NCBI RefSeq assembly: GCF_057098645.1
Contig: NZ_CM169472.1
Reading direction: 5' to 3' (one strand)
DNA: 64,000 nt
Shown piece after piece: positions 61,890 through 62,283 of this stretch. The first letter of the stretch is position 1, and each line of letters opens with the position of its first letter. Under the pieces are notes generated by a model. That model was not told the origin of the DNA and ran no database searches. It saw only the letters and a program-made list of their open reading frames with translations. Both the position numbers and the translations under genes were made by a program.

Positions 61890-62023
61890 CAATATTTTCC
61901 TCCCGCGCTAAAGATCACATAATCTTAACAAGAATGTTAAAAAACGCTGGACTCAGACAGTAGAGTGTGTGTTATGGTTGACTATAAAGTCAGCGAAGGA
62001 AATGCTTCTGGCTTTTAACAGAT

Positions 62024-62126
62024 AAAAAGAGACCGAACACGATTCCTGTATTCGGTCCAGGGAAATGGCTCTTGGGAGAGAGCCGTGCGCTAAAAGTTGG
62101 CATTAATGCAGGCTTAGTTGCCTTGC
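62024..62126 (-). ncRNA. sdsR: SdsR (RyeB) small RNA
   Basis: Minus-strand sequence GCAAGGCAACTAAGCCTGCATTAATGCCAACTTTTAGCGCACGGCTCTCTCCCAAGAGCCATTTCCCTGGACCGAATACAGGAATCGTGTTCGGTCTCTTTTT, ending in its own hairpin and T-run. Confidence 0.75.
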
Positions 62127-62218
62127 CCTTTAAGAATAGATGACGACGCCAGGTTTTCCAGTTTGCGTGCAAAATGGTCAATAAAAAGCGCGGTGGTCAT
62201 CAGCTTAAATGTTAAAAA

Positions 62219-62255
62219 CCGCCCGTTCTGGTGAAAGAACTGAGGCGGTTTTTTA
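62219..62255. terminator. Bidirectional terminator downstream of yebY
   Basis: CCGCC...GGCGG stem with AAAAA on one side and TTTTTT on the other. Confidence 0.6.
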
Positions 62256-62283
62256 TTGGAAATCAAAAGGCTATTTTAGGTAA

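Follow-up and report, generated by a model that had tools for sequence, protein, structure and literature searches.

The spacer between pphA and yebY (61893..62283) is the canonical E. coli sdsR/ryeA site, at which two sRNA genes lie on opposite strands of a single 270-bp stretch. All positions refer to the window, the whole 64,000-nucleotide stretch of contig NZ_CM169472.1 (RefSeq assembly GCF_057098645.1) that was analysed. An initial annotation, made from the letters and their open reading frames, had recognized an overlapping antisense pair here, and follow-up analysis confirmed sdsR at 62024..62126 on the minus strand and ryeA at 61986..62255 on the plus strand, far beyond chance. The locus is the known SdsR/RyeA (RyeB/SraC) antisense sRNA pair, an already known and ordinary part of the E. 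coli core genome.

The sdsR/ryeA locus in an O145-type genome

A sequence search with the 801 bases at 61700..62500 gave 100% identity with E. coli O145 and O145:H28 chromosomes, and 5425 of the 5426 complete E. coli genomes contain this region. Of the 5661 places that match the locus, one is in a record classed as a plasmid. Open reading frames and annotation place pphA, encoding protein phosphatase 1, downstream of sdsR at 61233..61889 (-) and yebY, the conserved upstream neighbour of sdsR, at 62284..62625 (-), in agreement with the two flanking genes originally named for the pair.

The pair had also been described as invisible in an ORF track, and it was equally absent from automated annotation: the PGAP record of the matching O145 strain has no feature in the spacer, nor do the other PGAP-annotated E. 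coli records sampled. Annotated ncRNA features were found only in the MG1655 record (ryeA, 272 nt, plus strand; sdsR, 104 nt, minus strand), and alignment with K-12 MG1655 puts them at 61986..62256 (+) and 62024..62127 (-) in the window. Across the spacer there are three differences from K-12, namely 62191 (C/T), 62206 (T/G) and one T fewer at ~62249. All three fall in the 3' part of RyeA, and SdsR and both promoters are identical to K-12.

An Rfam scan of the whole window returned four matches at or above the gathering score, two of them at this spacer. When 61800..62400 was scanned at a low threshold, nothing appeared beyond SdsR and RyeA except a chance-level rliE match (E = 0.097).

SdsR and its promoter and terminator

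The SdsR_RyeB family (RF00111) matched 62024..62123 (-) along model positions 1-100 of 100, scoring 114.4 bits against a gathering score of 38 (E = 1.8e-21). This Rfam result, which the initial annotation had proposed as a check, is decisive for SdsR. Together with the K-12 transfer (62024..62127) and the published ends, the full-length match supports sdsR (ryeB) at 62024..62126 (-), exactly where it had been recognized, as the gene for a sigma-S-dependent, Hfq-associated, trans-acting sRNA of ~100-103 nt. Primer extension and RACE mapped the start 1 nt downstream of the older annotation, which is 62126 in the window, and the same study reported 3' ends at +100 to +102, corresponding to 62027..62025 (Choi et al. 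2019, PMC6610125). Compared with K-12 sdsR (b4433), the sequence, promoter, terminator and position downstream of yebY are the same, with no difference within the gene. The start at 62126 lies directly downstream of yebY on the same strand, the synteny that is always seen in this family (Frohlich et al. 2012).

SdsR folds into three hairpins with a free energy of -35.2 kcal/mol (z = -3.8). Its Rho-independent terminator occupies 62024..62058 (-) and consists of an 11-bp stem at ~62058..62029 and a U-run at 62028..62024; the consensus scan found this stem followed by CUUUUUAU, and it folds at -15.8 kcal/mol (z = -3.6). SdsR thus has a terminator of its own, as first proposed. Termination is Rho-independent in vitro (Choi et al. 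2019, PMC6610125), and the terminator has been published as leaky.

The sdsR promoter spans 62133..62160 (-), with a -35 element TGGAAA at 62160..62155, a 16-bp spacer, a C at -13 (62139) and a -10 element TATTCT at 62138..62133. The position of the -10 element is pinned by the published mutagenesis primer PM_SdsRF, which converts AGAATA on the plus strand to CTCGAG (Choi et al. 2019, PMC6610125). The C at -13, the -10 of the TAYNCT type, the A/T-rich TTAAAG discriminator and the 16-bp spacer are marks of sigma-S selectivity, and Frohlich et al. (2012) described the sigma-S promoter hallmarks of sdsR. These features and the published in vitro transcription by sigma-S polymerase are consistent with the predicted RpoS dependence.

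RyeA and the limits of its Rfam match

The SraC_RyeA family (RF00101) matched 62020..62164 (+) at full length, with 175.1 bits against a gathering score of 37 (E = 2.9e-40). The RF00111 and RF00101 models, which share clan CL00105, are mirror images of each other, and RF00101 also scores on the SdsR antisense strand in Shewanella, Aeromonas and E. albertii, indeed in every SdsR homologue that was rescanned. The RF00101 match is merely the mirror of SdsR and the conserved sdsR promoter, and it lends RyeA no independent support. We rejected it as independent proof of RyeA, since such mirror matches also occur in species lacking the E. coli ryeA promoter. The Rfam check for RyeA that had been suggested along with that for SdsR thus came out above the gathering score, as anticipated, but it does not count as separate evidence for a second transcript. 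The call of RyeA therefore rests on identity with the experimentally mapped promoter and terminator of K-12. More generally, when two mutually antisense families belong to one Rfam clan, a match to the second follows automatically and is silent on the second transcript, so that promoter and terminator evidence is needed.

The K-12 transfer and published ends place ryeA (sraC) at 61986..62255 (+), an antisense RNA of ~261-272 nt that spans the whole of sdsR together with its promoter. Three neighbouring starts have been mapped for RyeA, of which the most downstream is the annotated 5' end at 61986 and the others lie 1-2 nt upstream (61984 and 61985); its 3' ends at +261 to +270 lie inside the T-run of a hairpin, and termination is Rho-independent in vitro (Choi et al. 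2019, PMC6610125). The published 3' RACE primer, AAAGTCAGCG..., likewise begins at 61986. The initial annotation had drawn its span from 61893 and flagged the RyeA 5' end as a guess. The actual start at 61984-61986 is ~93 nt further in, and 61893 is the edge of the pphA ORF. Similarly, of the two transcript sizes expected at this locus, ~100 nt agrees with the published ends of SdsR, but RyeA is about 261-272 nt rather than ~250 nt.

The ryeA gene has a sigma-70 promoter at 61970..61978 (+) that is identical to K-12 and has an extended -10 element (TG at 61970-61971, TATGGT at 61973..61978). This promoter lies 38 nt past the 3' end of SdsR. In K-12, RyeA is lost when TATGGT is changed to CTCGAG by means of primer RyeA-p3 (Choi et al. 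2019, PMC6610125). At the other end is an intrinsic terminator (62214..62254, both strands), with an A-run at 62214..62218, a stem at 62219..62248 and a T-run at 62249..62254. The hairpin 62219..62255 has folding energies of -20.0 kcal/mol (plus strand, z = -4.1) and -19.8 kcal/mol (minus strand, z = -6.3). With an A-run before the stem and a T-run after it, this hairpin is bidirectional, ending RyeA on the plus strand and yebY on the minus strand.

The same hairpin was the only plus-strand hairpin with a U-tract in our own terminator scan of 61940..62330. On the plus strand, the complement of the SdsR terminator leads into CAGGGAAA; since there is no U-run after it, RyeA reads through. On both counts the original statement that only this hairpin can end RyeA is correct. 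The further proposal of a longer RyeA fully covering SdsR is borne out by the K-12 annotation (61986..62256), the 3' RACE ends at +261 to +270, Rho-independent termination in vitro and the terminator scan. Relative to K-12 RyeA (b4432), the TG-n-TATGGT promoter, the 5' end, the terminator hairpin and the full overlap with sdsR are the same, whereas the RNA differs by the substitutions at 62191 and 62206 and by the length of the U-tract in its 3' part, the T-run shared with the yebY terminator having 6 T at 62249..62254 versus 7 in K-12.

A scan for consensus promoters and terminators proved inadequate for this locus, as it missed the ryeA extended -10 promoter, which has no good -35, the sigma-S-type sdsR promoter and the bidirectional terminator with its bulged stem. 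It was replaced by the -10 hexamers in published primer sequences and by our own scan for hairpins with U-tracts. The only sigma-70-like consensus match was at 62273..62300 (-), with CTGAAA, a 16-bp spacer and TAAAAT, at the 3' end of yebY and upstream of the yebY terminator. This match is not one of the mapped promoters and was set aside. It is ~40 bp from a formerly reported heat-shock promoter of pphA that was inactive according to Choi et al. 2019 (PMC6610125).

Conservation of SdsR and RyeA across species

A pattern scan of one genome per species found at least 120 SdsR loci, in Enterobacterales and also in Aeromonas, Shewanella and Alteromonadales. All 14 of the 14 distant loci rescanned with Rfam exceeded the SdsR gathering score, with 48-87 bits. 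The distant homologues, from Shewanella, Aeromonas, Aliidiomarina, Bowmanella and Paraglaciecola, extend beyond the Enterobacterales covered by the literature used, and they keep the 3' two-thirds of SdsR (UAGCGCAC, hairpin 2 and the terminator); the 5' third is not conserved.

Among 73 distinct Enterobacterales homologues, the helix of the SdsR terminator was paired in 99.8% of cells, and 6 of its 11 pairs had compensatory changes on both sides. None of 500 shuffles reached the observed covariation, and slid controls were 21-47% paired. Helix 2 was invariant and so uninformative for covariation, as the pattern used for collection had fixed its sequence, and helix 1 was only 79% paired, with covariation there unreliable as MAFFT shifts the variable 5' end. 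In our own alignment, the sdsR promoter blocks CTGGAAAA and then C-TAYNCT were conserved across Enterobacterales genera.

Conservation was unevenly distributed over the locus. Segment scores against the window were 0.80 (median) for the SdsR overlap versus 0.17 for the ryeA promoter and 0.18 for the unique 5' part of RyeA. These last two segments were conserved within E. coli only and fell to background in E. albertii (0.15-0.18) and all other genera. In E. albertii, 95-96% conservation is seen for sdsR, its promoter and the yebY terminator, although everything beyond the SdsR terminator (ryeA promoter, RyeA 5' part and the pphA side, homologous in position to 61864..62023) bears no relation to the E. 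coli sequence. This independently reproduces the published picture of a conserved SdsR and a variable SraC/RyeA (Frohlich et al. 2012). The gene downstream of sdsR also differs between species.

A prophage attachment site at the sdsR 3' end

The 3' half of the SdsR terminator is also a prophage attachment core of 32 bp (62023..62054), which is empty in the window. In NZ_CP148440.1, a prophage of ~43 kb is flanked by a duplication of these 32 bp (L125:324-355 and L125:43443-43474). Its integrase and excisionase genes lie next to sdsR, and it carries a recE/recT/ralR/kil early region and pinE. The insertion leaves sdsR intact beside yebY and moves the ryeA promoter and pphA to the far side. A query spanning the junction matched 228 of the 5426 complete E. 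coli genomes (4.2%), and the sdsR/ryeA locus was split in about 237 complete genomes.

A similar arrangement has been described in Salmonella, where phage PhiW104 uses the last 23 bp of ryeB for attachment (Balbontin et al. 2008, as cited in PMC7380047). As in E. coli, the end of sdsR/ryeB is the att core, sdsR is kept and the 5' part of ryeA is replaced; the duplicated core measured in E. coli is 32 bp versus the 23 bp reported for PhiW104. A search of a collection of deposited phages with the integrase module returned only PP818812.1:46270-47508, at 97% identity, and this single match gave no family name for the sdsR-integrating prophage. The record is labelled Actinobacillus phage vB_Apl-pPE4, an unexpected label for an att/integrase module otherwise seen in E. 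coli chromosomes.

Integration at this core is observed; its regulatory consequences are drawn from the K-12 circuit and the PhiW104 precedent. Insertion would disconnect sdsR from the ryeA promoter, ending degradation by RyeA as well as transcriptional interference, and would part pphA from its main promoter, the sdsR promoter. It is therefore possible, though we regard it as doubtful, that a lysogen at this site would have an altered SdsR dosage and a silent pphA, in which case a strain such as this one would switch regulatory state on acquiring the phage.

A different disruption was seen in strain FDAARGOS_944 (NZ_CP065613.1), in which an IS1A element lies inside sdsR (L124:6178-6946, equivalent to ~62101..62120 of the window). 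This strain is probably without functional SdsR and full-length RyeA.

Predicted operation of the circuit

Judging from sequence identity with K-12, this is the canonical sdsR/ryeA locus, and the circuit known from published work on K-12 and Salmonella almost certainly operates in this O145-type strain too. In vitro, RyeA was transcribed by the sigma-70 holoenzyme, and SdsR was the sole product of the sigma-S holoenzyme (Choi et al. 2019, PMC6610125). A RyeA of ~270 nt whose abundance is reciprocal to that of SdsR has been published for K-12. In growing cells, sigma-70 polymerase would make RyeA, and this transcription would run head-on through the sdsR promoter and interfere with it. RyeA would also form a duplex with any SdsR present, along the full ~100 nt of SdsR, and RNase III would destroy this duplex in a mutual degradation; RNase III is assigned this role in the model of Choi et al. 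and, earlier, by Vogel et al. 2003. In stationary phase, ryeA-ryeB ranked first in abundance among the p19-captured double-stranded RNA clusters overlapping known sRNA genes, and its fragments bore RNase III signatures.

On entry into stationary phase, sigma-S polymerase would make SdsR, which would outnumber and remove RyeA. SdsR reaches ~300 copies per cell (Frohlich et al. 2012) and with Hfq would repress mRNAs in trans, namely tolC, yhcB and, reportedly, mutS, as well as ompD in Salmonella. In promoter mutants, mutS did not behave as a primary SdsR target. Some polymerases would pass the SdsR terminator and yield pphA mRNA, consistent with the report that most pphA transcription originates at the sdsR promoter through read-through of the terminator, giving an sdsR-pphA dicistronic transcript (Choi et al. 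2019, PMC6610125). A chromosomal mutation of the ryeA -10 element led to earlier appearance of SdsR and higher pphA.

Since SdsR is toxic when overexpressed and the cell is rescued by RyeA, the pair is entered in databases as a type VIII (RNA-RNA) toxin-antitoxin system; toxicity arises via yhcB repression in the account attributed to Choi et al. 2018. The toxin label for SdsR rests on overexpression.

Alternative readings of the locus

The low segment scores of the ryeA promoter (0.17) and RyeA 5' part (0.18) against the overlap (0.80), reaching 0.15-0.18 even in E. albertii, and a published ryeA promoter mutant that alters only a few genes raise the question of whether SdsR is the only selected and functional RNA here. 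RyeA would then be a young, lineage-specific antisense by-product, its antitoxin role an overexpression artefact and the locus in effect a single sRNA gene accompanied by antisense noise. We consider this unlikely, as the core of the ryeA promoter is preserved in E. coli, RyeA ends at an efficient terminator of its own and published work has found both abundant RyeA-SdsR duplexes in vivo and an effect of the chromosomal ryeA -10 mutation, which advances SdsR and raises pphA. The read-through that supplies most pphA transcription could instead suggest that the minus-strand element serves mainly as promoter and leader for pphA, with SdsR an attenuation product of that leader. This runs against the conservation of SdsR across species whose downstream gene varies, the unrelated E. 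albertii sequence beyond the SdsR terminator, the published ~300 copies per cell and trans targets of SdsR and the prophage that separates an intact sdsR from pphA in 4.2% of E. coli genomes, and we find such a reading very hard to sustain.

Lastly, the spacer could encode small proteins, with the RNAs acting as their mRNAs, and open reading frames of this kind do exist mechanically, such as 62072..62143 (+, 23 aa), 62118..62234 (+, 38 aa) and 61990..62181 (-, 63 aa). All of these start with TTG, and neither the K-12 nor the O145 annotation includes any of them. Conservation follows RNA structure, with compensatory changes in the stem, and not reading frame, and the RyeA-only parts that hold the plus-strand ORFs are unconserved outside Escherichia, making this explanation exceedingly improbable. 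We retain the reading of the locus as a pair of overlapping sRNA genes.

Other RNA features in the window

The two remaining Rfam matches lie elsewhere in the window. A cspA thermoregulator match (RF01766, 137 bits) at 46072..46532 (-) covers yobF and a cold-shock-family gene named cspE by PGAP, which is cspC in K-12. The alignment is best within the coding region, so paralogy among csp genes, rather than a thermosensor leader, may account for the match. The sRNA sroD (RF00370, 108.5 bits) was found at 26937..27022 (-), overlapping the 3' end of fadD (CDS 26982..28667, -) and just upstream of rnd, and is without annotation in the matching O145 record.

A yybP-ykoY Mn2+ riboswitch (RF00080) upstream of mntP, at 44381..44477 (+), was missed by the gathering-threshold scan because its 42 bits are just under the threshold of 45; the stretch separating it from mntP carries an annotated small hypothetical ORF (44490..44612). 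A long palindromic hairpin at 44175..44256, lying between yobD and the leader of mntP, gave weak microRNA-precursor matches on both strands and probably represents a REP-like or terminator palindrome. The O145 record from which annotation was taken lists leuE (18816..19455) and yoaC (33054..33352) as frameshifted pseudogenes.

Comparison with related systems and significance

SdsR-RyeA is one of the two founding examples of type VIII toxin-antitoxin systems, the other being CreT-CreA, and its RNAs overlap on opposite strands; in the window, sdsR (62024..62126, -) lies wholly inside ryeA (61986..62255, +). Unlike in classical toxin-antitoxin systems, the toxin is a conserved core-genome regulator whose toxicity appears on overexpression, and the antitoxin gene is poorly conserved. 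RyeA of Salmonella and Shigella starts ~35 nt further upstream than that of E. coli (Frohlich et al. 2012). The CJnc180/CJnc190 pair of Campylobacter is similar in that an antisense RNA opposes a trans-acting sRNA of the same locus and RNase III cuts the duplex. However, the sequences and organisms are unrelated, and in Campylobacter RNase III also matures the active sRNA.

The main value of these results is for annotation, as a genome scan should add sdsR (62024..62126, -) and ryeA (61986..62255, +) by transfer from K-12. For the biology of the family, SdsR is a conserved, sigma-S-dependent core sRNA of enterobacteria that is linked to porins and efflux (ompD, tolC), envelope biogenesis (yhcB) and mismatch repair (mutS). 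The SdsR/RyeA pair also controls pphA and doubles as a phage landing site, and none of these roles is new.
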